Shown: piece after piece, positions 27,971 to 60,540 of the stretch | Position numbering within the stretch: position 1 is the stretch's first letter | How the letters are laid out: the number at the start of each line of letters is the position of its first letter | Sequence record: MW394390.1 | DNA length: 64,000 nt | Strand: one strand, 5' to 3' | Source of the DNA: Klebsiella phage vB_KpM_FBKp34 | Program-made: the position numbers and the translations under genes | Notes under the pieces: generated by a model | Seen by the model: the letters and a program-made list of their open reading frames with translations, nothing else | What the model was told of the DNA's origin: nothing | The model's database searches: none

Positions 27971-28045
27971 TGGAGGGTAGTAGTGGAATCTAACCACTCT
28001 AATACTGTTTTGCAGACAGATACATGAACACTCTGACAACTACCC
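27971..28045 (-). tRNA. tRNA-Cys (anticodon GCA), weak D-stem
   Basis: Perfect acceptor GGGTAGT/ACTACCC, anticodon loop CTGCAAA, T-arm AGTGG-TTAGATT-CCACT, CCA; D-stem poorly paired. Confidence 0.55.
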
Positions 28046-28733: not shown

Positions 28734-28847
28734 TGGCGGTGAATTCAGGAATCGAACCTGAGCCTACTCCATGACAAGGGAGATTGAATGCTGTAAAACT
28801 TCTCTAAGAAGTTATTTTTAGTTATTCTACCACTAAACTAATTCACC
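28734..28847 (-). tRNA. 114-nt tRNA-Leu-like (anticodon TAG) with about 38 nt of extra sequence
   Basis: Perfect acceptor GGTGAAT/ATTCACC, D-arm GTTT-AGTGGTA-GAAT, canonical anticodon arm AACTT-CTTAGAG-AAGTT, extra hairpin CTCC-CTTGTCAT-GGAG containing a TTTACAGCA repeat motif, perfect T-arm TCAGG-TTCGATT-CCTGA, CCA. Confidence 0.5.
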
Positions 28848-29029: not shown

Positions 29030-29170
29030 TAATTATCAGAAGCTATCTTTTCTATACTTTCGCTCTACCAGGCTGAGCTATTCCCCGTCAGTTGTTCGGG
29101 GAAGCAGGATTTGAACCTACGACCAAAAGTTCCCATTAGATTTTATTTGCTGTAAAGCTTCTTTGATAAA
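29030..29170 (-). ncRNA. candidate Y-RNA-like ncRNA containing a circularly permuted tRNA-like module
   Basis: On the minus strand a tRNA 3' half (ACTTT-TGGTC-GTAGG-TTCAAAT-CCTGC-TTCCCCG-A) precedes, across an 8-nt linker, a 5' half (CGGGGAA-TA-GCTC-AGCCTGGTA-GAGC-G-AAAGT). The halves pair perfectly (7/7 acceptor, 5/5 anticodon-stem). Flanks can pair as AGAAGCT/AGCTTCT and ATCT/AGAT. Lies directly downstream of the Ro60-like gene on the same strand. Confidence 0.4.
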
Positions 29171-29409: not shown

Positions 29410-30849
29410 TTAGAAATCATAACGTGGTACGTTAACTAACTTCTGCATAACTTTAACAGGTTCTAACTCACCTGTCAAGAGTCCTTTCATAATCGCTGGT
29501 GAAAATCCTGAAACCAATGCTGTACCTTTCTGACCTACTTGAACTGGCACGTTGCCTCTCTGATGGGCTGCAAGATTCCAGAAAACAAGCTGAGGCATGG
29601 TATATCCAGACTGACTGTACATGAGAGCAATAGACTCAAAGTTTGTCATACCTGAAATAGCTTGGTTAAATTCCATATCAGAGAATACGATAACTTTACT
29701 AGGCATATCCCCTTGTGTCAAGTTGTGTTTCTTACCTAACTCAAGAATTCTTGCAAAAGCTTTCATAATATCAGTTGATCCATACTCAACATGTTCTTGT
29801 ACCTTAGCAAGTTTCTGTGCAAGAGTCAAGGAACTTCCTACATCAATAAAATAAGGATTTGTTGAATACACCATCATCTGATCTTTAAAGATGCCTTTAT
29901 TACGTTCAGCAATGTAAAGAGATAAAGCAATCCCTACATGAAGAGCATAAATATCACCAGAAACTTTTGCGTTATCAAAAGTCATTGAACCAGAAACATC
30001 AGATAAACAGATAATGTTTTCACTTGTACCTTCAGTATAATCTGGCAATGCTTTCCATTGGGCATTTGCTACTGACTTATCTCCGTGCATACAAGATTTT
30101 ACAATATCATACGGATAAACAGCACCTGCATTGATCTTAGCTTGTCCATCTTCTTTAATCAGGCTTTCACGATACTGTGCATAACGTTCACTGTCCACAC
30201 GATTAAATAGTGCCTGATAACGTGCTGCTGCAAGTGATGGCAGCTTGCTATAATCAATAGCACCGTATTCTTTGCGAGAAAGACTCTGTTCCACAGTATT
30301 AGACAAAGAGGACAAGAGTTTATTATATTCCTGATAACTCAGTTTCATAAATTTAGCAAGTACCTTTGCATTATTTTTATTTTTAACTGTGTTATTTCCA
30401 CGCATACGTGGCATCCATTTTGCGCATAGTCCTGCGTTAGTCTTATCTGTTAAACAGTCAGCGATAAACTGCAAGGCTTCTTTTTCAACTGGTGTTCCAA
30501 TAGCTTCAAGAACATCGTCCCAACGACCAAGTTCTGGAATCTTAACTAACAAACGTGTTGCGAGTTTTGGATTCTGGTCACAAATGTTTTTAAATGTTTT
30601 TCTAAAAATATTTCTTTCACCCATACCTCCGCGAATATCTCGGGAGTACAGAAGAATACGTACAGCAGTTTCAGCATCTTCACTAAGAGCTTGCCAGAAA
30701 AGATCATCAGAAACAACATTCGGATTCTTACGTAAAGTACCAATCTGGAAAAACAAATCCACATTTTTATTCAGTGAAGATTCATGAGTAACTGCACCAT
30801 TAAGTGTCAGTTGGGACTTAGTACGGGATGCATCAAACAGCTTAGACAT
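29410..30849 (-). CDS. putative Ro60/TROVE-like RNA-binding protein with C-terminal von Willebrand A domain (DUF2828-type)
   Basis: 479 aa; C-terminal vWA with MIDAS LSDVSGSM; N-terminal ~270 aa helical domain of Ro/TROVE-like character (domain call by memory, not verified). Confidence 0.45.
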   Translation of the reverse strand: MSKLFDASRTKSQLTLNGAVTHESSLNKNVDLFFQIGTLRKNPNVVSDDLFWQALSEDAETAVRILLYSRDIRGGMGERNIFRKTFKNICDQNPKLATRLLVKIPELGRWDDVLEAIGTPVEKEALQFIADCLTDKTNAGLCAKWMPRMRGNNTVKNKNNAKVLAKFMKLSYQEYNKLLSSLSNTVEQSLSRKEYGAIDYSKLPSLAAARYQALFNRVDSERYAQYRESLIKEDGQAKINAGAVYPYDIVKSCMHGDKSVANAQWKALPDYTEGTSENIICLSDVSGSMTFDNAKVSGDIYALHVGIALSLYIAERNKGIFKDQMMVYSTNPYFIDVGSSLTLAQKLAKVQEHVEYGSTDIMKAFARILELGKKHNLTQGDMPSKVIVFSDMEFNQAISGMTNFESIALMYSQSGYTMPQLVFWNLAAHQRGNVPVQVGQKGTALVSGFSPAIMKGLLTGELEPVKVMQKLVNVPRYDF

Positions 30850-32191: not shown

Positions 32192-33877
32192 TTAAAGTTG
32201 TGACGCTGCTCGTTCACGAATCGTTGTCAGGTCTTCATCGACAATCAGCTTGCCGTTGTAGAACACACGACGCAACTCGTTATCGTCAGACTGTACATCT
32301 TCAAGCTGACAATTGTCAACCAGTTTCAGTTCGCCATTCTCATCACGAACAACCTTCAGGAAACCTTTTGCAGATTTCTTACCGAGGTCAGTCTTCGGTT
32401 CTTTGACAACCATGATCTGCTGACCATCAATCACAGCGCCAGTTGCCTTAACAGCCATACCCAGTGAATCGCGGGTTGTGTACTGCGTGGTGAAAGAACC
32501 GACGCCGTAAACAATGTTGCTGGATGCAAAACCTTTTTCTTTCAAACGTTCAAAGATGTCTTTTGCACGAGCAACAGTGATGGAGTCACCGTAAATCAGA
32601 CCAACATGACTATCAAGAACTTTGTAACCTTTAGTGTTAAATTCACCACCGAAGATTTCCCACAGACACTGGATTGCACCTTTAACTTCATGCTCTTCAA
32701 GACCTGAAGGTTGGAAGTCGAAGTAGGCATTATTCTCATCGTCAACAAGAATCCGGTAGTATTTACCTTCAATCTTGGCAACTTCTGAATTTGAATCTTC
32801 CTGTAGTGCTGAGTGTGCATCAGACCAGTCATCAAACTCACCGAGGCTACGATAGCCAGCAATGATATGCTCTGGAATACCAGAATCAGGACGGAATACT
32901 ACACGACCATCACGGGCCATGATGTCCTGTTTCAGGATCGCTGCTGCTTTGGTGATAATCGCCCAAAAGTCATAACTGTCTGCCACGTAGGAAACAAAAC
33001 CTTTAGGGAAAATTTCCGTAATGTAACGACGCAGGAACTCAACCTCAGCCAAGAAACGCGCTTCATCCAGAGTCAATTCAGGGTGTTCACCTTGTAAACG
33101 ACCAACGATGAAACCGATGTTCGTTGTTGCAACAGAGTGTTCAGATGCAGGAATAGAACCAGCAACGAACTTGCCTTTCATGTTGTAATAACGATTTGCA
33201 TACAGAATTGCTGGGATAGTATCAGTACCCATTGAGTTGATCAGTTGACCAAACTCACTCTGTGCTGCGTCGTGCGTCCCAGATTCACCACGATATGCGA
33301 AACAGTGGTTCTGGAAAGGCACATGCAAGTTGTTATCGCAAGTCTCAGCAGCCCATTTTTCAGACAGCTTGCGATACTGCCAGAACGTAGTTGCAGTCGT
33401 AATAGTTTTCCAAGTTTCTGCGGAGATCACACTTTCCAGGAAGTTAGGCAACCAGTAAAAATCAGGATGCGTGTTCTGAATGGTGAACAGCGGAACCTGT
33501 ACCGGAGACAGAGTACCTTCAGGAATCGAACGGATTTCCAGTGGCAGATAACCAAGGTCATGCAGCTTTTCAAATCCCCAAGTTTCAACCATGTTAGGAC
33601 CAATACTCAGATCACAAATTTCTTTGTACTGTTCAATAGCTTCTTCTTTACTTTTCTTGAAGAAGTTTTCGTTAAACATGTCGATAAGGAACCACTTAAT
33701 GAATCCCTGAAGACCTGCCATCATAACACGCTGGTCGTTATCAGCGAAGTGAATGAAGTGCTTCGCATTTCGTGGTGTCATGTTGTCCTGAACAATCTCA
33801 GAGCGTTTATCGTACATAGAAATGTGGCTTGGCTTATACCAATCCGCAAACATGATAGGGTTTTCTTTATACAGCAT
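32192..33877 (-). CDS. nadV: nicotinamide phosphoribosyltransferase (Nampt / NadV-like)
   Basis: 561 aa; NAPRTase-family motifs (GTDTIPA, DSYD, GLIYGDSIT, VYGVGSFT); co-localised with prs, nadR-like and pnuC. Confidence 0.7.
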   Translation of the reverse strand: MLYKENPIMFADWYKPSHISMYDKRSEIVQDNMTPRNAKHFIHFADNDQRVMMAGLQGFIKWFLIDMFNENFFKKSKEEAIEQYKEICDLSIGPNMVETWGFEKLHDLGYLPLEIRSIPEGTLSPVQVPLFTIQNTHPDFYWLPNFLESVISAETWKTITTATTFWQYRKLSEKWAAETCDNNLHVPFQNHCFAYRGESGTHDAAQSEFGQLINSMGTDTIPAILYANRYYNMKGKFVAGSIPASEHSVATTNIGFIVGRLQGEHPELTLDEARFLAEVEFLRRYITEIFPKGFVSYVADSYDFWAIITKAAAILKQDIMARDGRVVFRPDSGIPEHIIAGYRSLGEFDDWSDAHSALQEDSNSEVAKIEGKYYRILVDDENNAYFDFQPSGLEEHEVKGAIQCLWEIFGGEFNTKGYKVLDSHVGLIYGDSITVARAKDIFERLKEKGFASSNIVYGVGSFTTQYTTRDSLGMAVKATGAVIDGQQIMVVKEPKTDLGKKSAKGFLKVVRDENGELKLVDNCQLEDVQSDDNELRRVFYNGKLIVDEDLTTIRERAASQL

Positions 33878-34466
33878 CTTTTGTGTCTCCTTTGTGGTTT
33901 ATTCTATAAAATATGCAATTTCTATGAGAGTGTCTTTTACCTTTTACAACAGCACTAACTAAGCGATAGTCAAAGCCATAATCTCTCATCTCTTCATTGC
34001 CATTCATAATAGCAACTATTTCATTTGTGTCAAGAGTTATTGCAAATATTGTGAAAGATAATCTTGTTGCCCTCCTCCCACTTGGCATATCCTTCAACCC
34101 ATTGGCAAGTGCGTGAATTTGGTTAGTTTTGTTATCAACCCACTCAAGGTTTTCAACATTATTGTTTTGCTTGTTACCATCCTTGTGGTTGACTTGAGGA
34201 AGTCTTGTAGGATTAGGTATAAATGCTTCTGCAACTACACGATGAACCTTGAGACTGACTTTCTTGCCACTTTTATCCTTCGTCCTAAGACGTAAATAAC
34301 CACAATTATCTTCTTGAAATTTTAAAATCTTGCCTTTTACTTTACATAAGGTTCCTGTATCAGACCGTGCATAAACACGGTCAACAGAATAGATATTACC
34401 TTCGTTATCTACTTCAAGATATCCTTCAAAATCCTGAACGGATTTCTTTGAGAATTCCATGTTCAT
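33867..34466 (-). CDS. HNH homing endonuclease (NUMOD4-type N-terminus plus HNH_3)
   Basis: Start re-assigned to ATG at 34466 (GGGAGA RBS); HNH motif NHKDGNKQNNNVENLEW; 5' end overlaps the 3' end of prs. Confidence 0.6.
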   Translation of the reverse strand: MNMEFSKKSVQDFEGYLEVDNEGNIYSVDRVYARSDTGTLCKVKGKILKFQEDNCGYLRLRTKDKSGKKVSLKVHRVVAEAFIPNPTRLPQVNHKDGNKQNNNVENLEWVDNKTNQIHALANGLKDMPSGRRATRLSFTIFAITLDTNEIVAIMNGNEEMRDYGFDYRLVSAVVKGKRHSHRNCIFYRINHKGDTKDAV

Positions 34467-35271
34467 TTCTCCCTGAAATATTTTCCATCCATGGATGGTA
34501 AGTGTAAACCTCATCAACAAACCCTTCGAGGATATCTATCCCTTTTGAGAAGATACCATGTGTAACGTATAAAATTACACGTTTTGCACCTTTTTGTTTA
34601 AGAACCTCCCCTAATTTAAGAAAGGTGAACGCACCATCGGCGATGTCATCTACGATGACACATTCTTTACCAGCCACATCCCCAAAAACCTCTGTCCCGA
34701 AAATTTCTCCTGTCGTTACATCACGAACCTTACCAGCCTCCACCAGTGGAAGGCGCATACGATCTGCAACCTTTTGTGCTTTCTTCCTTGCACCAGCATC
34801 TGGTGCTACAATAATAACGTCTCCACCATAAAGGTGGTCATGGAATTCTGAAATCAGTATATCTTGACCACGAACATGAACATTGTTTAGTAATGCTGTT
34901 GAAACATCACTATGTGGATCATCTACCACAACTTTATCAAAACCAAGCGAGTTTACAATGTTTGCAAATACCTTAATGGCAAGAGCTTCACCAGGCTGCA
35001 TCACACGATCCTGCCGAGCATAGGGGATGTAAGGCAGATTTAGAGTAAACTCTGCATGAACATCAAGATTCTCAAGCCGAGAAACTGCATCCACGAGTAA
35101 AGCCAATACCATAATATCCGCAGAATTTTTAATCTTTGCTGTAATGTCAACAAAACCAATACTACCTTTCGGAGCATGGTTCAAGTCAATCTTCACTTGC
35201 TCCTCACCACCTTTGAACGTAAAGTGGTCTACAGGAACAATAAGTTTGTTCAGTCTAAGTTCAAGACTCAT
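34426..35271 (-). CDS. prs: ribose-phosphate pyrophosphokinase (PRPP synthetase)
   Basis: 281 aa; PRPP-binding loop VIVDDIADGAFT and Prs-type N-terminal domain. Confidence 0.7.
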   Translation of the reverse strand: MSLELRLNKLIVPVDHFTFKGGEEQVKIDLNHAPKGSIGFVDITAKIKNSADIMVLALLVDAVSRLENLDVHAEFTLNLPYIPYARQDRVMQPGEALAIKVFANIVNSLGFDKVVVDDPHSDVSTALLNNVHVRGQDILISEFHDHLYGGDVIIVAPDAGARKKAQKVADRMRLPLVEAGKVRDVTTGEIFGTEVFGDVAGKECVIVDDIADGAFTFLKLGEVLKQKGAKRVILYVTHGIFSKGIDILEGFVDEVYTYHPWMENISGRNEHGILKEIRSGF

Positions 35272-35990: not shown

Positions 35991-36286
35991 TGTCAGATTT
36001 TACTACAATCATGTCAGTGGTAGATAAACCGAACAAGCGTATGCGTAAAGAGAAACCTACCACTGAAGAAGTCTTGTTCTTAGATCAGGTAAGAAGTGTA
36101 AGACTCTCTGTAATCCATGGTCAACCTGTTGTAGTGGTAACGGAAACAGAAAGAAGTTTTGAAGATGTCTTCAAACAGTACACCAGTGTGATGAAACTTT
36201 ATGACAAAAGAGGCTTGATCACACTGAAGAGTCTTGATAAAGTTACAGCTTCAGATTTAGATAAAAATATTGTGGAGATCCATTAA
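35990..36286 (+). CDS. hypothetical protein
   Basis: 98 aa, first ORF of rightward operon, GAGGT RBS. Confidence 0.45.
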   Translation: MSDFTTIMSVVDKPNKRMRKEKPTTEEVLFLDQVRSVRLSVIHGQPVVVVTETERSFEDVFKQYTSVMKLYDKRGLITLKSLDKVTASDLDKNIVEIH

Positions 36287-37332
36287 TGACTATTGGTTTG
36301 ATTTTTGGGAAGTTTGCACCTTTACACTTAGGACACATCAACATGGTGATCAAAGCTTCTGCTTTGGTTGACACATTGCATGTGGTCTTAAGTTATGATC
36401 AAAAATTCAATGATACATTAGAACCTAGTGTTAGTGAACCTTTAACCAAAGCCAACAGACATTTAGCTTTGATTGAAACCTTTAAAGATTTTAATAACAT
36501 CATCGTCAGTGTCATTGATGAAAGTGCGGTTCCTGGTTATCCAGAAGGTGAAGTAATGTTCACTAATATGCTGAAGAAAAAGACTAGAACTCTACACTTC
36601 GATAAAGTATTTACAAGTGAACCTAGTTATGATAAGTATCTTAAAGATAATTTTCCAGACTCTGAGCACATCGTTGTAGATGCTAACCGTGATGAAGTAA
36701 ATATCAGTGCAACAATGATCAGAAATAATCCCTATAAGTATTGGGATTTTATTGCTCCAGCCATGAGAAAACACTATGTGAAAAAAGTTTGTATCATTGG
36801 TGTAGAGTCTACTGGCAAATCAACACTAGTTAAAAAGCTCTCTAAAGCTCTACAGACGCTTTTTGTAGAAGAGGTAGGTCGAACTATCTGTGAGCAAGAA
36901 TATGGCCTCACAGAGGCTTACATGAAGCCTGAAGACTATGTATACGTTGCTATGAAGCATAAGATGAAAGAAAAGGAACTTTTGCCATATGCAAACAAGA
37001 TTTTGTTGAGTGATACAAATGCAGTTGTGACAGACTTTTCTATGAATACATTTAACAACTTGGAGCACTACTCCCCACTGTTGTCAGAGATCTGTTTTGC
37101 TGAGAAATATGATCTTGTCTTGTACTTACGTAATGACATCCCTTGGGTAGATGACCCTTTACGTAAAAAATCAACACAAGATGACAGAGAAAAATCACAA
37201 AAGGTTCTTGACAATTTTGTATACAACGTTTATAAAGTTTATGAGAAGTGTCCAGTTATCCAAATTGGTGGGACTTACGAAAACCGCTTCAATGAAGCAA
37301 TGAAAGAAATTAAAAAACTTCTAGCAAGTTAA
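36286..37332 (+). CDS. nadR: bifunctional NMN adenylyltransferase / ribosylnicotinamide kinase (NadR-like, NatV-like)
   Basis: N-terminal nucleotidyltransferase motif FGKFAPLHLGH; C-terminal Walker A GVESTGKST of the RNK domain. Confidence 0.8.
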   Translation: MTIGLIFGKFAPLHLGHINMVIKASALVDTLHVVLSYDQKFNDTLEPSVSEPLTKANRHLALIETFKDFNNIIVSVIDESAVPGYPEGEVMFTNMLKKKTRTLHFDKVFTSEPSYDKYLKDNFPDSEHIVVDANRDEVNISATMIRNNPYKYWDFIAPAMRKHYVKKVCIIGVESTGKSTLVKKLSKALQTLFVEEVGRTICEQEYGLTEAYMKPEDYVYVAMKHKMKEKELLPYANKILLSDTNAVVTDFSMNTFNNLEHYSPLLSEICFAEKYDLVLYLRNDIPWVDDPLRKKSTQDDREKSQKVLDNFVYNVYKVYEKCPVIQIGGTYENRFNEAMKEIKKLLAS

Positions 37333-37346: not shown

Positions 37347-37532
37347 ATGAAAATAGGTGATATGGTACGTTGTACTCACAGTGCAGATAATGATTTTACT
37401 GTAGGTAAGCTTTACATTATTGATGCTTTTGATGGAGATGGTGATCCTATTCTAGTTGATAACGATGGATATATAGGTAACATTGGAGTGATTATGAATG
37501 GCTATCTTTACCAGTTTGAGGAGGTAAAATGA
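37347..37532 (+). CDS. hypothetical protein
   Basis: 61 aa ORF. Confidence 0.35.
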   Translation: MKIGDMVRCTHSADNDFTVGKLYIIDAFDGDGDPILVDNDGYIGNIGVIMNGYLYQFEEVK

Positions 37533-38227
37533 ATATTTATCTTAAAACAACTTTGACTGATTTTTATGGTTGGTCTAAGTTAGAATATCTTTGGCTTTTT
37601 GTTTGTTCCGTAACTATTGCAGCAACATCAGTTATTATGGGTGCAACTCTCGTTGAATTTGTTTCATCTGTTACAGGGATCATTGGTGCGATCCTTGTTG
37701 CTAAAGGGAAACTCTCAAGTTACTACTGGGGATTTGTTGCAACAGCATTGTATGCATATATCTCATTCACATACAAAATGTATGGTGAAACAATTATGTA
37801 TACTGTATTGTTTACACCTTTACAGTTGATTGGTGGTATTCTTTGGTCTCAAAAGTTAAAGCTTTCTGAAGATGGACAGAAGGCGGATGTTGTTAAGAAA
37901 TGGTTAACAACTCAACAACGTCTCATTGTTACTGTTGGTACACTAATCGTTATTGCAGCCTATGCTTATGGTGTTTCCTTGTTGAAGGGATATTCTCCTG
38001 GTTTAGATTCTGCGACAGCAATTCTCTCTGTGCTAGCTACAGTGTTAATGGTACTACGTTACTCTGAACAATGGTATGTTTGGGTAATTGTTAACATTGT
38101 TGCCGTTGTTCTTTGGATTCAGGCTACAATGCATCATGAGGGTGGAGGAGCAGTCGTGTTAGTAATGTGGGTTGCTTACCTCTTAAACTCAGTGTATGGT
38201 GTATATCAGTGGCGTAAAATTGCTTAA
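37529..38227 (+). CDS. pnuC: nicotinamide riboside transporter PnuC
   Basis: 232 aa, multiple TM helices, Trp-rich PnuC-like signature segments; follows nadR-like gene. Confidence 0.65.
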   Translation: MNIYLKTTLTDFYGWSKLEYLWLFVCSVTIAATSVIMGATLVEFVSSVTGIIGAILVAKGKLSSYYWGFVATALYAYISFTYKMYGETIMYTVLFTPLQLIGGILWSQKLKLSEDGQKADVVKKWLTTQQRLIVTVGTLIVIAAYAYGVSLLKGYSPGLDSATAILSVLATVLMVLRYSEQWYVWVIVNIVAVVLWIQATMHHEGGGAVVLVMWVAYLLNSVYGVYQWRKIA

Positions 38228-39743: not shown

Positions 39744-40093
39744 ATTTTGAATTACCAGATATTTGTTTTAAAGTTGCAGACTGGTTGGATGGTCGTAAAA
39801 TTCAACGACGAATTGTATGTGCAGCTAATAGATTTGAATTGAAAACTGGCGGAACTATCATTATTCCTGGTACTCGTCATTATTCTCGTGACATGGCAAA
39901 TGTCTTGGATTTAATTTGTGATAAGCTGGTAACAGATCATGTTAGCGGTGATAATCAAGGGTTTGTTGATCAATGGGGTGAATATTTTACTCGTGAGGAA
40001 GCTTTGATTATTGCAACTCATGCTGGACAGATTAACACTGTACGCACCAAAGGTTATCCTCGTGATGTATTATTTAGTGAGGATTTATATTAA
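39740..40093 (+). CDS. hypothetical protein
   Basis: 117 aa ORF. Confidence 0.4.
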
Positions 40094-40584
40094 TGAGAGA
40101 TATTCTTAAAGAACTTAATGTTAATCATTTAAGTCATCAACTTGAAGATAATTGGCTAGATTTCTATGCTAGTACTTATGTGCAATGTCGTAAAAACTTT
40201 AGCGAAGCTTTACATCATGTCCAAGAACTCTTTAATGTAAAAGAGGATGAAATTTTAGCAAAATCATACTCAATTCGTGCTTATGATTACACTAATCCAG
40301 AGTTTATGCTAAAATTTTGGGAAGATGTTAATCAATTTATTAAAGAAAATACCTCAGAAGATTGGAATTTTTCATATATTACTGTTGAAGATACTGAAAA
40401 ATTCATAGACCAATATGATGATTTTGGTGAAGATTTTAAACAGATTAGTTTATATGCTTATGTTAAAAGCTTTGATCAATTTACATCACAAGAACAACAG
40501 GATGCAATTGATACAATGAGATATTGTGAAATTAAACTTAAAGAAGCAAAAGAAAATTTAGATCAATATAAAAGAGGTATTTAA
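40093..40584 (+). CDS. hypothetical protein
   Basis: 163 aa acidic ORF. Confidence 0.4.
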   Translation: MRDILKELNVNHLSHQLEDNWLDFYASTYVQCRKNFSEALHHVQELFNVKEDEILAKSYSIRAYDYTNPEFMLKFWEDVNQFIKENTSEDWNFSYITVEDTEKFIDQYDDFGEDFKQISLYAYVKSFDQFTSQEQQDAIDTMRYCEIKLKEAKENLDQYKRGI

Positions 40585-40585
40585 T

Positions 40586-41143
40586 ATGTATGTGACTTCA
40601 GACCTGCATTTTATGCATAGGAGGGTTTCTGAATTTTGTCCTGCTTATAGAAAATGGAATTATCTTCATGATATGACAGAAGGACTTATTTTAGCTTGGA
40701 ATGAAAAAGCTAAAACACCAGGGACAAAAATGTATCATCTCGGCGATTTCTGCTTTGGGACACCAGAAGAAACAGATCTCATAGCTTCCCGTCTGAATGG
40801 TGATATTACATTTATTGTTGGCAACCATGATTACTCAAAACACCGAGAAGTGCTTGAGAAGTATGGTGAAGTGAAGTATTACGATGAAGTTAAATATGGT
40901 AAGAAATTCTTTGTCCTTTGTCACTATCCTATTGCATCTTGGAATAAACAAGGAAGAGGTTCAATTATGCTTCATGGGCATAGTCATGGAAGTTTTCCTG
41001 ATGAAATGTATGGAAAGATGTTAGATGTCGGTTGGGATGCACAAGGGAAGATCTTGCATTTTGATGAAATCATTGCTAAGATGGAGCGTCGTGAAGTAAA
41101 AGTAATTGACCACCACAAAAATTTTGGTTTAGATAATGAATAA
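40586..41143 (+). CDS. calcineurin-like metallophosphoesterase (candidate RNA/DNA end 3'-phosphatase)
   Basis: Motifs DLHF, GDF, GNHD, HGHSH. Confidence 0.7.
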   Translation: MYVTSDLHFMHRRVSEFCPAYRKWNYLHDMTEGLILAWNEKAKTPGTKMYHLGDFCFGTPEETDLIASRLNGDITFIVGNHDYSKHREVLEKYGEVKYYDEVKYGKKFFVLCHYPIASWNKQGRGSIMLHGHSHGSFPDEMYGKMLDVGWDAQGKILHFDEIIAKMERREVKVIDHHKNFGLDNE

Positions 41144-41333
41144 AGACATTGATCTTATTGAGAATGTAATATTTCTTCTGAGTGAACTTGAAGATTATGT
41201 TGACAACCTAGATATGAGCGAATATGATGACTTCAATGAGATGAAGGAAGCACAAAAAGAAGTTCTTAAACTTTTGAAGAATCTTACACGAAGGAGAGAA
41301 AATGAAGTTCAACGTAGACGACTTAGTTGCTAA
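41136..41333 (+). CDS. hypothetical protein
   Basis: 65 aa ORF. Confidence 0.35.
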   Translation: MNKDIDLIENVIFLLSELEDYVDNLDMSEYDDFNEMKEAQKEVLKLLKNLTRRRENEVQRRRLSC

Positions 41334-42222
41334 AAATCTGGTGACTAAAAAGACTTACACCGAAGGCCCGTTCGCTGGTCTTTCTGTGCTCAAATATAAG
41401 AACAATGTGTTCTGGGACAACCTGTGGCATACAGACTCACGTCTGCTTGAGTGTCGTGGTATGGTTGTTGATGCAGAAGACAACGTTATTATCTGGCCTT
41501 TTACGAAGATTTTTAACCGTTTCGAGAATGGAACAGACTTACCACTCGATCAGCAGGTTGTTTGCATTCGTAAAGTCAACGGATTTATGGCAACTGCTGC
41601 GGTACGTGGTGAAAAACTTCTTGTATCAACGACAGGAACCTTGGATTCTGAGTTCTCTGATCTGGCACGGAAATATCTTGAAAAGATGAAATTAGATCTT
41701 GTTGCATTTCCAGAGGACTATACTTTCATCTTTGAAATTTGTGACAGTAGCGACCCTCACATTGTTGAGGAGGAAGAGGGTGCATATTTGATTGGTATGC
41801 GAGACTTAGCCTTAAATGGGACAATGCTTGAAGAATATCGTCTTGATCGCATAGCTGAAGTGATCGGAGCAAAGCGTCCTGAATGGCATAATATGTTCTT
41901 CAGTGATGTGATCAAGTACTCCAAGGCTGTAACTCACGAAGGTTTTGTTATCCGTAATGTCGGAACAGATAACGAAAACAGCGAACTGCTTCTTAAAATA
42001 AAGTCACCACATTACTTGACGAAGAAGTTCCTGATGCGAGGTGGACAGAACAAGTGGGACATGATCTGGGACAATCCAAAAGAAGCTAAAAAGCGTATTG
42101 ATGAAGAATATTATAACCTTATTGATTATTTACGCTGGGCCTTTGAAAAAGAGGAATGGGCAGTTAAAGATGCTCAATATCGTCGTAAATGGATCGAGGC
42201 TTATTTTGAGGAGAAATGCTAA
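41302..42222 (+). CDS. putative ATP-dependent RNA ligase (Rnl-like nucleotidyltransferase)
   Basis: Motif I KVNG, motif III FIFEI, motif IV EGFVIR, motif V LKIKS. Confidence 0.5.
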   Translation: MKFNVDDLVAKNLVTKKTYTEGPFAGLSVLKYKNNVFWDNLWHTDSRLLECRGMVVDAEDNVIIWPFTKIFNRFENGTDLPLDQQVVCIRKVNGFMATAAVRGEKLLVSTTGTLDSEFSDLARKYLEKMKLDLVAFPEDYTFIFEICDSSDPHIVEEEEGAYLIGMRDLALNGTMLEEYRLDRIAEVIGAKRPEWHNMFFSDVIKYSKAVTHEGFVIRNVGTDNENSELLLKIKSPHYLTKKFLMRGGQNKWDMIWDNPKEAKKRIDEEYYNLIDYLRWAFEKEEWAVKDAQYRRKWIEAYFEEKC

Positions 42223-42566
42223 TGATCGTATGGCTTGATGACTTAAGAGATCCAAAAGACTACGGTTATCCTGATGCATTGTGGTTTAAGACCTCTCAGA
42301 AGTTTATGGATTTTCTTGATAATCGGTCAAAGTTCTATCGTTATGTCACAGAGTGGCATTTCGATAATGACCTCGGAGAAGATTCAGAAATGGAGGGCTA
42401 TGACTGCCTGTTAGCCTTGGAAGAGAAGCTTGTGTATGGGAAACTTCCTGTGCATGATGCTAAACTCTATGTCCACACATCTAACCCTTCTGCGGCAAAA
42501 AAGTTCATGCTTGCAAAAGAGAGCTTCTTGAAGTATCGTATCACGATCTTAAGAAACAATTACTGA
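42216..42566 (+). CDS. hypothetical protein
   Basis: 116 aa ORF. Confidence 0.4.
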   Translation: MLMIVWLDDLRDPKDYGYPDALWFKTSQKFMDFLDNRSKFYRYVTEWHFDNDLGEDSEMEGYDCLLALEEKLVYGKLPVHDAKLYVHTSNPSAAKKFMLAKESFLKYRITILRNNY

Positions 42567-42575
42567 GGAGAAGAG

Positions 42576-43001
42576 ATGGAAAAGACTCTGATTATCTTGC
42601 GTGGTGTGTCTGGTGCTGGTAAGTCTACAGTAGCAGAAATGTTATCAGATGGCGTATGGCCTATCTGTGAAGCAGATAAATTTCACTACACGGAAGAGGG
42701 TGTTTACGACTGGAAACCTGAAAATATCCAGGCAGCGCATAAATGGTGTCAAAATCAAGTAAGAGGTTACATGGAAGACAGCTTCCATGGTTTAGGTAAC
42801 TGGGTAAAAATAATTGTATCTAACACTACAACTACTGAAAAAGAACTTAAACCATATATTGACTTAGCTGAAGAGTATGGGTATAAAGTTGTTAGTTTGG
42901 TTGTTGAAAATAGACATGGAAATGATTCTATTCATAACGTCCCACAGGAAATCCGTGATACTCAAGAGAGACGTCTTAGAAACTCATTAAAATTACAGTA
43001 G
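42576..43001 (+). CDS. P-loop kinase (polynucleotide 5'-kinase-like)
   Basis: Walker A ILRGVSGAGKST at the N-terminus; 141 aa, size of T4 Pnk kinase domain. Confidence 0.4.
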   Translation: MEKTLIILRGVSGAGKSTVAEMLSDGVWPICEADKFHYTEEGVYDWKPENIQAAHKWCQNQVRGYMEDSFHGLGNWVKIIVSNTTTTEKELKPYIDLAEEYGYKVVSLVVENRHGNDSIHNVPQEIRDTQERRLRNSLKLQ

Positions 43002-43009
43002 GATAAATT

Positions 43010-43222
43010 ATGAAACATATTTTAATAGTACTATTATTCTTATCTTATTCAGTTTTTGCAAATGAGAATAAGAAGGATGTATTTTTGTTTACACCTAAAA
43101 CTGATGAGATCTTCGAAGTCAAAACTAATGATGGAAAACAATTGTGGTGTTATGTCTCCGATAAATTAATAACGAGATTAACTATAAAGTGCTTTGATAA
43201 AAATTTTGATAAGGAGAAATAA
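43010..43222 (+). CDS. small secreted protein
   Basis: Signal peptide MKHILIVLLFLSYSVFA. Confidence 0.4.
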   Translation: MKHILIVLLFLSYSVFANENKKDVFLFTPKTDEIFEVKTNDGKQLWCYVSDKLITRLTIKCFDKNFDKEK

Positions 43223-43998
43223 TGAGACGTCTTATAGTAATAAGTGGGGCGGGCTTCTCTGCGGAGAGCGGTGTACGTACATTCCGCACAGATACTGAAT
43301 CTGGGAAAGCTTTATGGGATGAATATGACCTTGAGGAGGTTTGTAACATACACGCCTTCCGTGGTAACTTCTACCATAAAACACACATGTTTTATAACAA
43401 GCGTCGTGCAGAGTTACCAACGGTACACCCGAATGCTGCACATCTTCGTGTTGCTGAATGGTACAAACGTTATCCTGGACAAGTTATCAACATGACGACT
43501 AACGTCGATGATTTGTTGGAACGTGCAGGTGTACCGAAAGAAGATACTCTGTACATTCATGGATACCTGAAAGAAATTCGTTATCAGATGCATGAGGATT
43601 CTGAAGAAGAATTGGTGGATATTGGTTATGCACAAATTGATCCTGATGATTATTATTGGTGCAAACCAAACGTAGTATTTTTTGGGGAGAATGCTCCGGC
43701 CTATGCTGCTATGTATGACACCTTGGAGTCATTGACAAATCAGGATCTTGTAATTGTTGTAGGCTGTTCAAATACAGTTATTAACTTCAACTGGGAACTT
43801 TTCCCTGCTTCAAGGATTGGTACTAAGGTTGTTGTAGTCAATCCAAATGTTCGGTATGATGAGCAGTTGATGTACGAAGATGCTGGTGTTATAGTTTATC
43901 GGACTGGAGCAGTGGATGCCTTTAGTAACTTAGATCTGATTAAAATGGTTGAAGACCATCTCGAAGGTAAAACTGGGCTTCAAAAATTAGGAAAATGA
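43222..43998 (+). CDS. Sir2-family NAD-dependent deacylase/ADP-ribosyltransferase-like protein
   Basis: GAGFSAESGVRTFR NAD-binding motif and Sir2 fold pattern. Confidence 0.65.
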   Translation: MRRLIVISGAGFSAESGVRTFRTDTESGKALWDEYDLEEVCNIHAFRGNFYHKTHMFYNKRRAELPTVHPNAAHLRVAEWYKRYPGQVINMTTNVDDLLERAGVPKEDTLYIHGYLKEIRYQMHEDSEEELVDIGYAQIDPDDYYWCKPNVVFFGENAPAYAAMYDTLESLTNQDLVIVVGCSNTVINFNWELFPASRIGTKVVVVNPNVRYDEQLMYEDAGVIVYRTGAVDAFSNLDLIKMVEDHLEGKTGLQKLGK

Positions 43999-44002
43999 GA
44001 TA

Positions 44003-44188
44003 ATGAAGAAACTTTATATTGTAATTAAAGATTCACTGCTTGCTTCTTTTCAAGATGGAGATAAAATAGAAGTTGAATGGGATGAACAAGAAGAACCATT
44101 TCTTAGGAGTCTTCGTGATCCAGATGATATTGTTGAGTTTAATCATCTAATTTATCACCATGTTTTATTTGAAGTCATTAAGGAGTAG
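44003..44188 (+). CDS. hypothetical protein
   Basis: 61 aa ORF. Confidence 0.35.
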   Translation: MKKLYIVIKDSLLASFQDGDKIEVEWDEQEEPFLRSLRDPDDIVEFNHLIYHHVLFEVIKE

Positions 44189-44190
44189 AG

Positions 44191-44409
44191 ATGAATCTTT
44201 ATGTTAGCTTTGGTCAAAAATATAATCTCAGAAACAGTCTTATGAAATTTGAAGGCAAAAATGAGGATCAAATTCGAGACTATATGATGAAGGTTTATAA
44301 AAATAAATACGCCTTCATTTATGAAGAATCAGAAGCATTGCGACAAGTTGATGTTTATGGTTTAAATATTGTTCTTCCTGGAGAGGAACTTTATGAACGT
44401 GTTAACTAG
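44191..44409 (+). CDS. hypothetical protein
   Basis: 72 aa ORF. Confidence 0.35.
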   Translation: MNLYVSFGQKYNLRNSLMKFEGKNEDQIRDYMMKVYKNKYAFIYEESEALRQVDVYGLNIVLPGEELYERVN

Positions 44410-44417
44410 GAGAAAAT

Positions 44418-44636
44418 ATGCAAATTTACTTAAATGATAAAGTTAAGATTAAAGATGGTGTTTTTGATGAGCTAGGTAATCAAAATATTGACTTATCTGG
44501 TAGGATTGGATATGTTTCTAGAATTGGTTATCGGTCAGATGAATTCCCTTTTGCTGTTAGTCTTGTAAGTAAAGAGACTGGACAGATTGAAAAAGAATTA
44601 GTTTTTAATATTGACGAATTGGAGGTTATATCTTGA
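44418..44636 (+). CDS. hypothetical protein
   Basis: 72 aa ORF. Confidence 0.35.
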   Translation: MQIYLNDKVKIKDGVFDELGNQNIDLSGRIGYVSRIGYRSDEFPFAVSLVSKETGQIEKELVFNIDELEVIS

Positions 44637-45994
44637 CACTAACTGAAATTATTAATGAACTTGCTTCTACTTCTTCTAAAAATGAAAAAGAAGCTATCAT
44701 GATCAAAAACAAAGATAATAAAGATCTTAAGCGTCTTTTTGAAGTAACTTATTCTAAAGACTTAAACTTTTTTGTGCGTCAATTTAAAGTGGATCTAATT
44801 AATACCGAAGGTTTAATGGATATTAATGAAAGCATTGAAATGCTTGTTAATGAGGTTGCTTCAAGAAATTATACGGGTAATGATGCACGAAGCTATATGA
44901 CACAACTTGTGCAAACTTGTAAAGAACCAGAACTACTTTTAAAAGTAATCAACCGTGATCTTGAATGTGGAGTTCAACAAACAATTACAAATAAAGTATG
45001 GAAAGATATTATCACTGATCCGCCATATATGAGTTACAAACTCTTTAAGCCAGAGTTGATCAAGAAGTTAAAATTTCCAGCTTATTCTGATGTAAAACAG
45101 GACGGTCTGTATGCTGATGTTATTGTTCATAAAGACTTAATTATTTATCGGTCAAGGTCGGGTAAAGAACTTAATTTCCGTCTACCTGAAAGTGAAGAGC
45201 GTAAACTTAAAGAATTGGCAGAATATCCTGGTGAATCTTTTGTTCTTCATTCAGAAGCCCTTGTCATTGATCCATCTTATCCAAATGGAGTTCAACCTCG
45301 TGAAATAGGTAATGGATACTTGAATCAAGACCCAGAACTTATTGATTGTAATAAAGTTAAATTAGTAACTTGGGATATGGTCACTTATAAAGAATATCTA
45401 GCACGTAAAAGTGAAGAGACTTATGATATTCGTCGTGAAGAACTTAGATGCCTCACACAACATTTAAAATCAAATCATGTTGAAATGATTGAAGGTGTTG
45501 TGGTAAACTCTATCTCTGAAATTATTGATCATTTTATTGCTTGTCGTAAAAAAGGTCTTGAAGGTACTGTAGTTAAATCATTTACACTTCTTTGGGAAGA
45601 TAAGAAAGTTTCCCAAGGTATTAAGATTAAAAATGAGTTTGATGCAGAATTTGTTATTGTTGGCTACATTGAACATAAGAAAAAGCCTGGATGGATTGGA
45701 TCTCTCCTTGTTGAGAGTTCAGATGGTAAAATTAAATTCGGTGTTGGTTCTGGTTTAACTGACAAACTAAGAAAAGAACCTTTTGAGAATTTCAAATTAA
45801 AAATTCTTACTGTTAAAGGTAATGATATTGGTTGTTCTGAATCAAAAGATACTTGGTCTGTTTTCTTACCACGTTATGTTGAGCTTCGTAATGATAAAAC
45901 CAAAGCAAATACATTTGAAGAATGTATGGAAGCAAAAGATTCAATAATTGCAGTTCTGAAAGAGATTGCTGAAGACTTAGAGAATAAGGAGTAA
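44633..45994 (+). CDS. ATP-dependent DNA ligase
   Basis: Motif I SDVKQDGLYADV (KxDG) and downstream ligase/OB-fold pattern. Confidence 0.75.
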   Translation: MTLTEIINELASTSSKNEKEAIMIKNKDNKDLKRLFEVTYSKDLNFFVRQFKVDLINTEGLMDINESIEMLVNEVASRNYTGNDARSYMTQLVQTCKEPELLLKVINRDLECGVQQTITNKVWKDIITDPPYMSYKLFKPELIKKLKFPAYSDVKQDGLYADVIVHKDLIIYRSRSGKELNFRLPESEERKLKELAEYPGESFVLHSEALVIDPSYPNGVQPREIGNGYLNQDPELIDCNKVKLVTWDMVTYKEYLARKSEETYDIRREELRCLTQHLKSNHVEMIEGVVVNSISEIIDHFIACRKKGLEGTVVKSFTLLWEDKKVSQGIKIKNEFDAEFVIVGYIEHKKKPGWIGSLLVESSDGKIKFGVGSGLTDKLRKEPFENFKLKILTVKGNDIGCSESKDTWSVFLPRYVELRNDKTKANTFEECMEAKDSIIAVLKEIAEDLENKE

Positions 45995-45995
45995 A

Positions 45996-46655
45996 ATGAA
46001 CACTATTAATACATATCTTAAACCACTGGATTTTTCAAAATATTTTAAGCGTGTTGTTGAATGGAATGCTACTGCACGTGGTGGAAAGCATGACTTCTCA
46101 GATAAAACACTAAATAAACAAAAAGAGCTTGTTGCAGAAGAGATCAAAGAACTTAAGGAAGCAATAGATGCCTCAGACACTGTTGAAGTTCTTGATGCAC
46201 TTTGTGATATCTTTGTAGTTGCAAGCTATTATCATTTCCTACAAATGAATGGAGAACTAAAAGATTTAAGCCTGAAGATTTTAACTCCGTTATCTGGTAT
46301 TGATTATTACACCAGTATGATTTATGATTTTGAAACATTGGATAATGGGTTAATGGTAACATCCGATGTGTGTGCTCTACTGTATCAATTCAATGGTTTT
46401 GCAACAGCCGCATTGGAGGAAGTACTCTCTAGTAATGATAGTAAATTCCCTAAAGTTGAAAAATTCGGAAAACAAAAATCTAAACGAGAACTTGCTCTTA
46501 ATAATGAATGTGCTATGATTGAAACTCGATCAGAAGGACGGTACTCTGAAGTTAAATGGGAAATTCGAGGTGATCGAGTAGTATTTTTAGATGGAAATGG
46601 GAAAATAATGAAGCCATTTACATTCAAATCTCCTAATCTTAAACCTTTCTGTTGA
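45996..46655 (+). CDS. MazG-like nucleotide pyrophosphohydrolase
   Basis: EEIKELKEAIDASDTVEVLDALCDIFVV resembles the MazG EExxE/D helical motif. Confidence 0.4.
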   Translation: MNTINTYLKPLDFSKYFKRVVEWNATARGGKHDFSDKTLNKQKELVAEEIKELKEAIDASDTVEVLDALCDIFVVASYYHFLQMNGELKDLSLKILTPLSGIDYYTSMIYDFETLDNGLMVTSDVCALLYQFNGFATAALEEVLSSNDSKFPKVEKFGKQKSKRELALNNECAMIETRSEGRYSEVKWEIRGDRVVFLDGNGKIMKPFTFKSPNLKPFC

Positions 46656-59793: not shown

Positions 59794-60540
59794 ATGCCTA
59801 AGCAAAATCGTCGTGACCGTATTGATCGTAAAGCTGCAAAAGTTCACAGTGCATACCAGGAGAAGGCTGTTATCAATAATGACTGGAAACTAGATTGGTT
59901 CACACCAAGTGAAGCGCAAGAAGAGATTGTCTATGGCATGGATCGTCATGATTTAACTATTGTAGATGGTCCATCTGGGACAGGTAAAACTTCCACTGCT
60001 GTGTGGAAAGCTTTGATGGATTTAAAACAAGGGCATTATCGTAAAATTGTATTCATCAAAAACCCTACTGAAGCTGGTGATGACATGATTGGTTATCTGA
60101 AAGGAGAAGTGCAAGACAAGCTTGCTGTACATTTTTCAGAAATGAAGAGAATCTTTCTAAACTTTGTTTCTAAGGGGAAATTGGAAAGTGATGAAGGTAC
60201 ACGACTTGAATTCACCATTCCTAACTATTTGCTAGGTACAACTTTCGATGATTCAATCATTATTGTAGACGAAGGACAGACATTCTCACCTAATACTATG
60301 AAGCTAGTTTTAGAGCGGGCTGGAGAGGGTAGTCGGGTGGTAGTATGTGGTGACTCGCGGCAGAGATATTCTGTTAAGAAGCGTGATGATGGCTTCTCTG
60401 ATTTAATTTCTAAAGTAACAGTACAATCAGAAGACGGTTTTATTGAAAGTAATCATGAACTGATTCACTATGTTAAACTTACCACCGATGAGAACCAACG
60501 TAGTGAACTGTCTAAACTGATTACAGAACTTTATGCATGA
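59794..60540 (+). CDS. phoH: PhoH-like ATPase
   Basis: Walker A DGPSGTGKTSTA and PhoH-family length/organisation. Confidence 0.85.
   Translation: MPKQNRRDRIDRKAAKVHSAYQEKAVINNDWKLDWFTPSEAQEEIVYGMDRHDLTIVDGPSGTGKTSTAVWKALMDLKQGHYRKIVFIKNPTEAGDDMIGYLKGEVQDKLAVHFSEMKRIFLNFVSKGKLESDEGTRLEFTIPNYLLGTTFDDSIIIVDEGQTFSPNTMKLVLERAGEGSRVVVCGDSRQRYSVKKRDDGFSDLISKVTVQSEDGFIESNHELIHYVKLTTDENQRSELSKLITELYA

Follow-up and report, generated by a model that had tools for sequence, protein, structure and literature searches.

Nucleases that cleave tRNA, among them PrrC, RloC, several retron and toxin-antitoxin effectors and Cas13, are now regarded as a major arm of bacterial immunity. Phage T4 reverses PrrC cleavage of tRNA-Lys with the polynucleotide kinase Pnk (PseT) and the RNA ligase Rnl1 (gp63), and to our knowledge the other phage answers that have been studied are mostly decoy or variant tRNAs. 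The subject here is a group of genes at positions 40586-43001 of a 64,000-nucleotide stretch of Klebsiella phage vB_KpM_FBKp34 (sequence record MW394390.1; the whole stretch is called the window below), which encode a calcineurin-like metallophosphoesterase, a ligase of RNA-ligase type and a P-loop kinase. These genes probably constitute a phage RNA healing-and-sealing module, built from separate small genes, whose task would be to repair RNAs, tRNAs for example, after cleavage by nucleases of the host defence.

The T4 pair follows the logic that is predicted for this cassette, namely to heal the 3' end, phosphorylate the 5' end and seal, and it shares with the cassette the ligase family (PF09511) and the fold family of the kinase. 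The 3'-phosphatase of T4 is a HAD domain fused to the kinase, whereas the candidate 3'-phosphatase here is a separate binuclear metallophosphoesterase; the repair genes are dispersed in T4 and clustered here. The same three activities, including a 3'-end healer of the calcineurin superfamily, occur in the bacterial Pnkp/Hen1 and Pnkp1-Rnl-Hen1 systems (Clostridium thermocellum, Capnocytophaga gingivalis), and the calcineurin-type phosphoesterase of C. thermocellum Pnkp (CthPnkp) removes both 2',3'-cyclic phosphates and 3'-phosphates. Bacterial Pnkp is one trifunctional polypeptide, whereas the activities here are predicted to reside on three separate proteins, with a ligase of the Rnl1 type and a phosphoesterase of the aq_1665 family. 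No Hen1 methyltransferase was found among the neighbouring genes scanned by Pfam, and the cassette is not a member of the bacterial Pnkp/Hen1 group. In fungi and plants, Trl1 and Tpt1/KptA provide a further comparison: the ligase fold is alike, and a cREC domain protein would take the place of the 2H cyclic phosphodiesterase and a sirtuin that of Tpt1. However, neither a 2H domain nor KptA/Tpt1 is present here, and most relatives of the cassette are without cREC and sirtuin.

A neighbourhood in phages V5 and Mydo that consists of a sirtuin, a T4-like ligase, cREC, a kinase, MazG and sometimes a calcineurin-like phosphoesterase has been read as RNA repair in a computational prediction (Iyer et al. 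2022, PMC9503650 section 3.7.3); PMC7824862 section 3.4.9 adds supporting arguments on cREC and RNA repair. All six components of this type-2, sirtuin-centred neighbourhood are found in the window at 40586-46655, on one strand and in an order collinear with that of Mydo; the phosphoesterase is 37% identical to its Mydo counterpart, as against 73-97% for the flanking genes. The cassette of the window thus belongs to a kind already described computationally in close relatives. What is added here is a quantification of the trio as the core, the placement of the phosphoesterase family and a residue change in the acceptor site of the kinase. In contrast to the description of Iyer et al., the census presented below makes the phosphoesterase a core member instead of an 'occasional' extra, and the sirtuin, cREC and MazG lineage-specific.

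An initial annotation, made from the sequence alone, had described three nearby genes. All of the motifs and coordinates that it quoted were recovered, and 40586-43001 is the span from the start of the first open reading frame (ORF) of the trio to the stop of the third. The trio is present but is not contiguous. Two ORFs between its genes (41136-41333 and the cREC gene at 42222-42566) had been overlooked, as had the sirtuin, MazG-like and nicotinamide adenine dinucleotide (NAD+) genes that flank the cassette. The genes of this span are:

40586-41143, plus strand: calcineurin-like metallophosphoesterase, 185 aa, with DLHF (residues 6-9), GDF (53-55), GNHD (79-82) and HGHSH (130-134)
41136-41333, plus strand: small acidic ORF, 65 aa, phrog_32298 (E = 1.3e-32)
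41302-42222, plus strand: predicted ATP-dependent RNA ligase of the T4 Rnl1 family, 306 aa, with KVNG (91-94), EGFVIR (213-218) and KIK (232-234)
42222-42566, plus strand: cREC domain protein (PF20274), 114 aa (116 aa if the start is at 42216)
42576-43001, plus strand: P-loop polynucleotide 5'-kinase-like protein, 141 aa, with the P-loop GVSGAGKST (10-18)

In the proposed pathway, a host ribotoxin or anticodon nuclease would cut a tRNA or another essential RNA to leave a 2',3'-cyclic phosphate and a 5'-OH. The metallophosphoesterase would open and remove the 3'-terminal phosphate, a role suggested by its context, and the Pnk-like kinase, judged by family and fold, would phosphorylate the 5'-OH with a nucleoside triphosphate. 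The Rnl1-type ligase would then join the 3'-OH to the 5'-phosphate through Lys91-AMP, as its family, fold and intact motifs suggest.

The three core enzymes

The ligase matches the Pfam family RNA_lig_T4_1 (PF09511) over model positions 1-226 of 227, with 43.4 bits (cut-off 28.3) and E = 4.6e-11; this and the other Pfam matches were judged against the curated cut-offs (gathering scores). In PHROGs it falls into phrog_562 (E = 2e-61). Across 21 homologues at 50-88% identity, which make up the ligase profile, the invariant residues include K91 of motif I (KxNG) and G94, E145 of motif III, E213-G214 of motif IV, and K232 and K234 of motif V. K91 and G94 align to the nucleophile K99 and to G102 of T4 Rnl1, E213/G214 to E227/G228, and K232/K234 to K240/K242. 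Upstream of motif I, the invariant or nearly invariant R52, K69 and F71 align to R54, K75 and F77 of T4 Rnl1, which we take from mutagenesis in the Shuman laboratory to be essential residues specific to Rnl1. Since the motif residues of the families considered here are invariant in homologues down to about 30-50% identity, the family matches are not due to chance.

Single-sequence searches of the PDB with the ligase, the kinase and cREC gave only marginal or irrelevant matches, and homologue profiles were therefore needed. NCBIfam offered nothing useful for the ligase or cREC, and its matches to the phosphoesterase (PdeM) and the kinase were far below threshold. At E <= 1 the ligase profile matches T4 Rnl1 only (2c5u and 9do4, E = 1.5e-9), with no DNA ligase, capping enzyme, Trl1 or Pnkp ligase domain. 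The AlphaFold2 model of the ligase has a predicted local distance difference test score (pLDDT) of 88.9, and its top Foldseek matches are T4 Rnl1, the ligase domain of fungal Trl1 (Trl1-LIG) and archaeal Rnl3, followed by Rnl5 and Rnl2. Template modelling (TM) scores in the Foldseek search of the PDB are 0.59-0.66 for Trl1-LIG and 0.59-0.62 for T4 Rnl1. Within ranks 1-30 every entry is an RNA ligase except one from Aquifex, which was deposited as a putative DNA ligase; characterised DNA ligases begin at rank 31, with a TM score of 0.38, and none scores higher. By both profile and fold, the ligase is thus of the RNA-ligase type, grouping with T4 Rnl1 and fungal Trl1 and not with DNA ligases or capping enzymes, and it is most readily understood as a putative sealing enzyme of the T4 Rnl1 family.

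One difference from T4 Rnl1 lies at the C terminus, where the all-helical domain of the T4 enzyme confers tRNA specificity. The ligase of the window is 306 aa long, compared to 374 aa for T4 Rnl1, and its model has six helices at residues 236-305, a region of about 70 residues as against about 120 in the larger T4 C-terminal domain; over the whole structures, the root-mean-square deviation is about 7 Å.

The PHROGs label of phrog_562, 'RNA ligase and tail fiber protein attachment catalyst', might be taken to mean that the main task of the ligase is to attach tail fibres, as T4 gp63 does. However, that label is inherited from T4 gp63 itself, and a purely structural chaperone role would not require all of the catalytic ligase residues to be invariant. 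The gene also lies in the metabolism and replication arm of the genome, beside genes for a DNA ligase, ribonucleotide reductase (RNR) and ThyX, and not among the virion genes, which form a module on the opposite strand. One might also suppose that the trio processes DNA ends for replication or repair, given that an ATP-dependent DNA ligase gene lies downstream and that T4 Pnk acts on DNA as well; against this, fold and profile place the ligase with RNA ligases. The constant partners of the ligase are end-healing enzymes, which speaks against both proposals, and we consider it very improbable that either one describes the main function.

The kinase matches Pfam AAA_33 (34.6 bits, cut-off 27, E = 2.9e-8) and phrog_2071 (ATPase, E = 1.5e-53), with a weaker match to phrog_505, 'polynucleotide kinase' (E = 5e-7). 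Its Walker A motif conforms to GxxxxGK[ST] (G10-V-S-G-A-G-K16-S17), and G13, G15, K16, D34, R113 and H114 are invariant in the 24 homologues of its profile. D34 aligns to the catalytic Asp of CthPnkp (D38, D35 in T4) and R113 to an Arg of the CthPnkp lid. The best PDB match of the profile is Pnkp1 of the Pnkp1-Rnl-Hen1 complex (4xrp, E = 2e-5), ahead of the CthPnkp kinase domain (4gp6, 4gp7, 4jst and 4mde, E = 9e-5 to 2e-4) and T4 Pnk (1ly1, E = 6e-3); deoxynucleoside kinase and thymidylate kinase follow at E = 0.25 and 0.38. The AlphaFold2 model (pLDDT 85.3) is closest in fold to T4 Pnk (TM 0.70-0.71) and the CthPnkp kinase domain, the best matches spanning TM 0.66-0.71. Lesser matches to PFKFB, gluconokinase and AvrRxo1 have TM scores of 0.54-0.62, so that the margins are moderate.

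The likeness to the T4 Pnk kinase domain claimed by the initial annotation is therefore borne out: profile and fold both put RNA-repair polynucleotide kinases first, and the protein groups with T4 Pnk, CthPnkp and Pnkp1, not with deoxynucleoside monophosphate (dNMP) kinases. That annotation had named two groupings as contrary to its reading, of the ligase with DNA ligases and of the kinase with dNMP kinases, and neither was found. The phosphate-acceptor site of the kinase nevertheless differs from that of T4 Pnk, because His37 and an invariant Tyr38 replace R38, the Arg that in T4 (R41 in CthPnkp) contacts the acceptor 3'-phosphate. The sequence and model evidence thus points to a member of the polynucleotide-kinase fold family whose acceptor site would not be a copy of T4's. 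The kinase was also considered as a ribosylnicotinamide kinase of NAD salvage, which was rejected as its principal role because in the locus census it tracks the ligase and not the NAD genes.

The phosphoesterase matches Pfam Metallophos (PF00149; 29.1 bits, cut-off 21.5, E = 1.6e-6) and phrog_547 (E = 4e-51). An alignment of 25 homologues (27-72% identity) shows no variation in the five metal-binding motifs (D6-x-H8, G53-D54, G79-N80-H81-D82, H113 and G131-H132-x-H134), in D151, or in the family-specific residues H11, R22, W38 and W119 and an LDVGxD motif. Judged by these residues, the protein looks like a competent binuclear enzyme. Its profile has a strong match in the PDB only to Aquifex aq_1665 (1xm7, E = 1e-22); the next matches, GpdQ and YfcE, are at about 0.01. 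The initial annotation was correct in calling the protein calcineurin-like with all of the motifs, but its family is that of aq_1665 and not the Pnkp/lambda-phosphatase type. Its gene context points to a candidate 3'-end healer, that is, a 2',3'-cyclic phosphodiesterase and 2'/3'-phosphomonoesterase.

The phosphoesterase allele itself looks as if it had been exchanged. It is 36-37% identical to alleles of the Mydo/KB57 type, whereas the flanking ligase, cREC, kinase and Sir2 genes are 73-97% identical, and it shares 73% identity with that of a different Vequintavirinae group (loci L010 and L011 of the census). Megablast similarity to most relatives begins only at about 41137, the end of the phosphoesterase gene.

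Conservation of the trio

The neighbourhood of the ligase was surveyed in 80 ligase-bearing loci from IMG/VR and five from species-representative genomes, onto which the window proteins were mapped (loci numbered L001-L089). In the fully flanked set, which comprises 64 loci with at least 3 kb on either side of the ligase, genes were scored within 7 kb of it. A kinase was found at 58 of the 64 loci and a phosphoesterase at 56. The remaining families were less frequent, with a Nampt-like gene at 31, a PRS-like (phosphoribosyl pyrophosphate synthetase-like) gene at 27, MazG at 15, Sir2 at 13 and cREC at 12. With a gap of no more than 150 nt as the criterion, the kinase is the immediate neighbour of the ligase in 48 of 75 loci; for the phosphoesterase the figure is 35 of 73.

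The order of the trio varies (phosphoesterase-ligase-kinase, kinase-ligase-phosphoesterase or ligase-kinase-phosphoesterase) among Mydovirus, Vequintavirus, Pakpunavirus and Thalassavirus. Proteus phage Mydo has an order collinear with that of the window, running phosphoesterase, small ORFs, ligase, cREC, kinase, small ORF, Sir2 and DNA ligase, with MazG further on. In Vequintavirus 'inoa', the phosphoesterase and kinase genes lie divergently upstream of a ligase-cREC-Sir2-MazG string. Pakpunavirus PAK_P2 has the phosphoesterase some way ahead of ligase-kinase-PRS-Nampt, and in the T5-like Vibrio phage Achelous ligase-kinase is followed at intervals by the phosphoesterase and PRS-Nampt.

The distribution of the ligase and kinase families is closely matched. 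Among 50,697 phage genomes, the ligase occurs in 693 records and the kinase in 620, the surplus of ligase records being due to distant ligases of Streptomyces phages. Sorted by genus, the ligase/kinase counts are 199/198 for Escherichia, 175/173 for Pseudomonas, 35/35 for Klebsiella, 24/24 for Acinetobacter, 14/14 for Salmonella and 13/13 for Aeromonas. A search of cellular genomes (one genome per species, 185,579 species) gave five ligase matches, all on contigs of metagenome-assembled genomes that are phage-like and carry the phosphoesterase beside the ligase. The ligase family is thus essentially restricted to phages. The initial annotation had treated the three genes as acting together, and the conserved neighbourhood and matching phyletic distribution argue that they are indeed functionally linked. 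A conserved functional module of phosphoesterase, ligase and kinase is strongly supported, and it forms a widespread core (~88-91% of loci).

Some 600-700 sequenced phage genomes carry the cassette family, and among them are phages of Klebsiella, E. coli, Pseudomonas and Acinetobacter that belong to kinds considered for therapy. If the proposed function is correct, the family would represent a widespread enzymatic counter-defence, which could shape host range. The cassette is also a compact, split-gene source of predicted RNA ligase, kinase and phosphoesterase enzymes.

Several points weigh against a role in RNA repair. The phosphoesterase profile matches no Pnkp or lambda-phosphatase domain in the PDB, and the closest solved relative, 1xm7, is a structural-genomics protein of no known function. 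The phosphoesterase family is also about twice as widespread as the ligase (1331 as against 693 phage records) and occurs in Staphylococcus, Enterococcus and Listeria phages that are without this ligase. For the kinase, the PDB matches are only moderate (E = 2e-5 to 2e-2), and the Arg at D+3 (T4 R38, Cth R41) is missing, its place being taken by His37 in most homologues and by Trp or Phe in a few. The choice of tRNA as the likely substrate draws on analogy with T4 and on the heavy investment of this phage in tRNA genes, and a literature search found no biochemical or genetic work on any cassette member. Moreover, Toprim-type effectors such as AriB of PARIS are nucleases that depend on metal, and the ends they produce need not carry a 2',3'-cyclic phosphate in need of healing. 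Finally, about half of the loci have an NAD+-reconstitution gene (Nampt-like or PRS-like) no more than 7 kb from the ligase, and 25 of these loci have neither sirtuin nor cREC. The RNA-repair model does not by itself account for this linkage, and because of the 25 loci the published rationale for the sirtuin does not either.

Accessory enzymes and NAD+ genes

The cassette is followed downstream by these genes:

43010-43222, plus strand: small ORF, 70 aa, with a hydrophobic, signal-peptide-like N-terminus
43222-43998, plus strand: sirtuin of the CobB/Sirt5-like class, 258 aa (PF02146, E = 1.1e-23)
44633-45994: ATP-dependent DNA ligase (Pfam E = 2.7e-12), 2.4 kb downstream of the RNA ligase
45996-46655, plus strand: MazG-like all-alpha nucleoside triphosphate pyrophosphohydrolase, 219 aa (Pfam PRA-PH, E = 1.3e-5)

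The cREC protein matches PF20274, the 'cyclic-phosphate processing receiver domain', with 64.5 bits (cut-off 27, E = 1.4e-17), and phrog_1479 (E = 3e-36). Its invariant residues are the receiver-like acidic D8, D9 and D50, plus H87 and N90, and it is predicted to be a phosphodiesterase acting on cyclic phosphates or on ADP-ribose (ADPR) cyclic phosphate. The sirtuin belongs to phrog_2162 (E = 1.6e-110) and has E. coli CobB as its best PDB match (1s5p, E = 2.4e-19). It keeps the NAD+-binding motifs GAGxSxxSG and TxNxD and the catalytic His, and appears to be without the Zn-ribbon cysteines, with one Cys in that stretch of the CobB alignment. In the published proposal, the sirtuin is an NAD+-dependent remover of 2'-phosphates analogous to KptA/Tpt1 (PMC9503650 section 3.7.3), cREC resolves cyclic phosphates including ADPR cyclic phosphate (PMC9503650; PMC7824862), and MazG is named among the components of the neighbourhood (PMC9503650).

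Across the 89 ligase loci, cREC is found in 12, all Vequintavirinae-like, a linked sirtuin in 13 and a MazG homologue 2-7 kb downstream of the ligase in 15. The cREC, sirtuin and MazG genes are thus an addition particular to Vequintavirinae-like phages (~14-17% of loci), and because most relatives of the ligase work without them, they are treated here as an accessory branch and not as the main route. In the Vequintavirinae, including the phage of the window, the core has gained cREC, the Zn-less sirtuin and the MazG-like enzyme. These accessories would most likely handle cyclic or 2'-phosphate ends or ADP-ribose by-products, consuming NAD+, and the adjacent NAD+ reconstitution genes could replenish what is consumed.

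A different arrangement follows from the proposal of Iyer et al. (PMC9503650), in which the main route would itself be a Trl1/Tpt1-like, NAD+-consuming pathway. Either cREC or the phosphoesterase would open the cyclic phosphate to a 2'-phosphate and 3'-OH, the kinase would act on the 5' end, and the ligase would leave a 2'-phosphate at the junction, which the sirtuin would pass to NAD+ in the manner of KptA/Tpt1; MazG, cREC and the phosphoesterase would then clear the resulting ADP-ribose cyclic phosphate. Besides being already published, this route would fit the position of cREC between the ligase and the kinase, with the sirtuin next in the same packed gene string, and the NAD+ reconstitution genes directly upstream. 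It would also be consistent with the retention of NAD+-binding motifs and catalytic His in the sirtuin, and with a ligase model about as close to Trl1-LIG as to T4 Rnl1. However, most orthologous ligase loci pair the ligase with the kinase and phosphoesterase only, and since cREC and the sirtuin are present in just 12-13 of the 89 loci, the ligase cannot generally depend on them. In addition, the ligase profile matches T4 Rnl1 and not Trl1, and a calcineurin-type phosphoesterase could remove the phosphate outright, as in CthPnkp. We know of no sirtuin with demonstrated activity on the 2'-phosphates of RNA. As the main route, the Trl1/Tpt1-like pathway is therefore judged unlikely.

A version confined to the Vequintavirinae can also be considered, in which the cassette would carry out a hybrid, NAD+-consuming repair: cREC would open 2',3'-cyclic phosphates to 2'-phosphates, the Zn-less sirtuin would move the junction 2'-phosphate to NAD+, and NARP1-like and NadR/PnuC functions would supply the NAD+. 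We hold this version, too, to be doubtful. If true, its sirtuin would be the first one demonstrated to have RNA as a substrate, and bacterial viruses would possess an analogue of the Trl1/Tpt1 route of tRNA splicing in eukaryotes. The Vequintavirinae form of the cassette offers a direct test bed for its two predictions, the cleavage of cyclic phosphates by cREC and the processing of RNA 2'-phosphates by the sirtuin.

The NAD+ genes lie upstream of the cassette in the window:

32192-33877, minus strand: Nampt-like (Namat-like) gene, by Pfam
33867-34520, minus strand: HNH homing endonuclease, separating the PRS-like and Nampt-like genes
34426-35271, minus strand: PRS-like (Adps-like) gene, by Pfam
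36286-37332, plus strand: NadR-like nicotinamide mononucleotide (NMN) adenylyltransferase/kinase, by Pfam
37529-38227, plus strand: PnuC (NMN_transporter, Pfam E = 1.7e-38)

By Pfam, the PRS-like and Nampt-like genes carry the signature of Adps/Namat, the pair of NARP1; the NadR-like and PnuC pair is suggested as a further route of NAD+ reconstitution.

The proximity of these genes raises the possibility that the phosphoesterase, cREC, kinase, sirtuin and MazG act mainly on small molecules derived from NAD+ or ADP-ribose, with the ligase serving a separate purpose; the accessory enzymes would then degrade host immune signals or feed NAD+ reconstitution, and the cluster would be a counter-defence island. 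Consistent with this possibility, Adps-like, Namat-like, NadR and PnuC genes lie immediately upstream, and a Nampt-like gene accompanies the ligase in nearly half of the fully flanked loci, as given above. NARP1 operons are also known to recruit accessory ADPR-processing phosphatases (bioRxiv 10.64898/2026.01.28.702374), the predicted action of cREC extends to ADPR cyclic phosphate, and the weaker fold and profile matches of the kinase include AvrRxo1 and nicotinamide riboside kinase. The behaviour of the kinase argues otherwise. By sequence and by fold it comes closest to polynucleotide kinases, it most often adjoins the ligase, its phyletic distribution mirrors that of the ligase almost one to one, and 36 loci have a kinase but no NAD-related gene nearby. 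Furthermore, the window has a NadR-type ribosylnicotinamide kinase domain elsewhere (36286-37332). A primary role in small-molecule metabolism is therefore quite improbable, and RNA repair by the trio remains the preferred interpretation. In a weaker form of the hybrid, NAD+-consuming reading, the frequent linkage of the trio to NAD+ genes might reflect a real biochemical coupling and not mere co-location in a counter-defence island.

The phosphoesterase was also considered as one of the 'phage phosphatases' that rescue NARP1; this candidate was rejected, because those are Macro-domain Adpp enzymes (bioRxiv 10.64898/2026.01.28.702374).

Gene arrangement, relatives and tRNA genes

The genes from 40586 to 43998 form a packed string on one strand, in which starts and stops overlap or sit within 10 nt of each other. 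The stop codon of the ligase and the start of cREC overlap in TAATG, with a GAGGAG Shine-Dalgarno sequence ahead, which favours 42222 as the cREC start; AGGAGA precedes the ligase start. The 65-aa ORF shares 8 nt with the end of the phosphoesterase gene and 32 nt with the beginning of the ligase gene, and it is kept at 40-76% identity in six of the first 84 loci, the types being listed as five Mydo/KB57-type and two Erwinia-type. The sirtuin start likewise overlaps the stop of the preceding 70-aa ORF. That ORF (43010-43222) has no homologue in other ligase loci at the thresholds used, and is probably outside the chemistry of the cassette.

The packed genes probably form one early or middle transcription unit. 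A promoter scan found 67 sites as against 51.6 ± 7.8 in shuffled sequences (about 2 standard deviations, in AT-rich DNA), and a terminator scan found 5 with 5.1 expected from shuffles; being barely above shuffled expectation, these scans cannot define the transcription unit. A near-consensus sigma-70 promoter-like site (TTGACA-17-TATGAT) lies at 41200-41228, inside the 65-aa ORF.

In a megablast search, 40000-43500 matched Klebsiella phage KP13-16 along all of its 3.5 kb at 94.4% identity, and about 48 further myophages (135-150 kb) of Klebsiella, Escherichia, Proteus, Raoultella, Enterobacter and Cronobacter at 80-88%. The window belongs to a phage of the Mydovirus/rV5-like kind. One of these matches is Proteus phage Mydo, which is classified in the Vequintavirinae, genus Mydovirus. 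In KP13-16, the closest GenBank relative, the cassette genes are all labelled 'hypothetical protein', so that for this window the value of the present analysis lies in their correct annotation.

The initial annotation had also noted about 20 tRNAs and a putative Ro/Y-RNA module. The tRNA count holds, with 17 genes found by ARAGORN and two further tRNA-like matches in Rfam (17-19 genes). The Ro/Y-RNA module is plausible. A gene at 29410-30849 (minus strand) encodes a Ro-like protein with DUF2828 (E = 2.4e-24) and DUF7788 (E = 7.4e-43). Next to it, at 29036-29143 (minus strand), is a full-length match to the bacterial Y-RNA-like family YrlA (RF02553), which at 39.6 bits stays below the gathering score of 69 (E = 2e-6, search space 4.2 kb); no Y RNA was found in the window at the Rfam gathering threshold. 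The main tRNA array begins directly after the YrlA-like match.

One of the two Rfam-only tRNA matches is a 111-nt element at 28737-28847 (minus strand, 47.7 bits), between tRNA-Glu and tRNA-Asp. Its acceptor stem and D arm are normal, about 37 nt are inserted in the anticodon region, and the CCA end is encoded; the element may be a tRNA with an intron, a regulatory RNA that resembles tRNA, or another Y-like RNA in addition to the first. The other match lies at 27974-28045 (minus strand). Between the two tRNA clusters of the phage, at 24066-25190 (minus strand), is a TnpB/Cas12f-like IS605 OrfB gene (HTH_OrfB_IS605, OrfB_IS605 and Cas12f1-like TNB). Further along the window, downstream of a PhoH-like gene (59794-60540), a gene at 61046-61960 (plus strand) encodes a 304-aa protein with a weak N-terminal match to a proteasome subunit (PF00227, E = 7.8e-6, residues 10-60 only).

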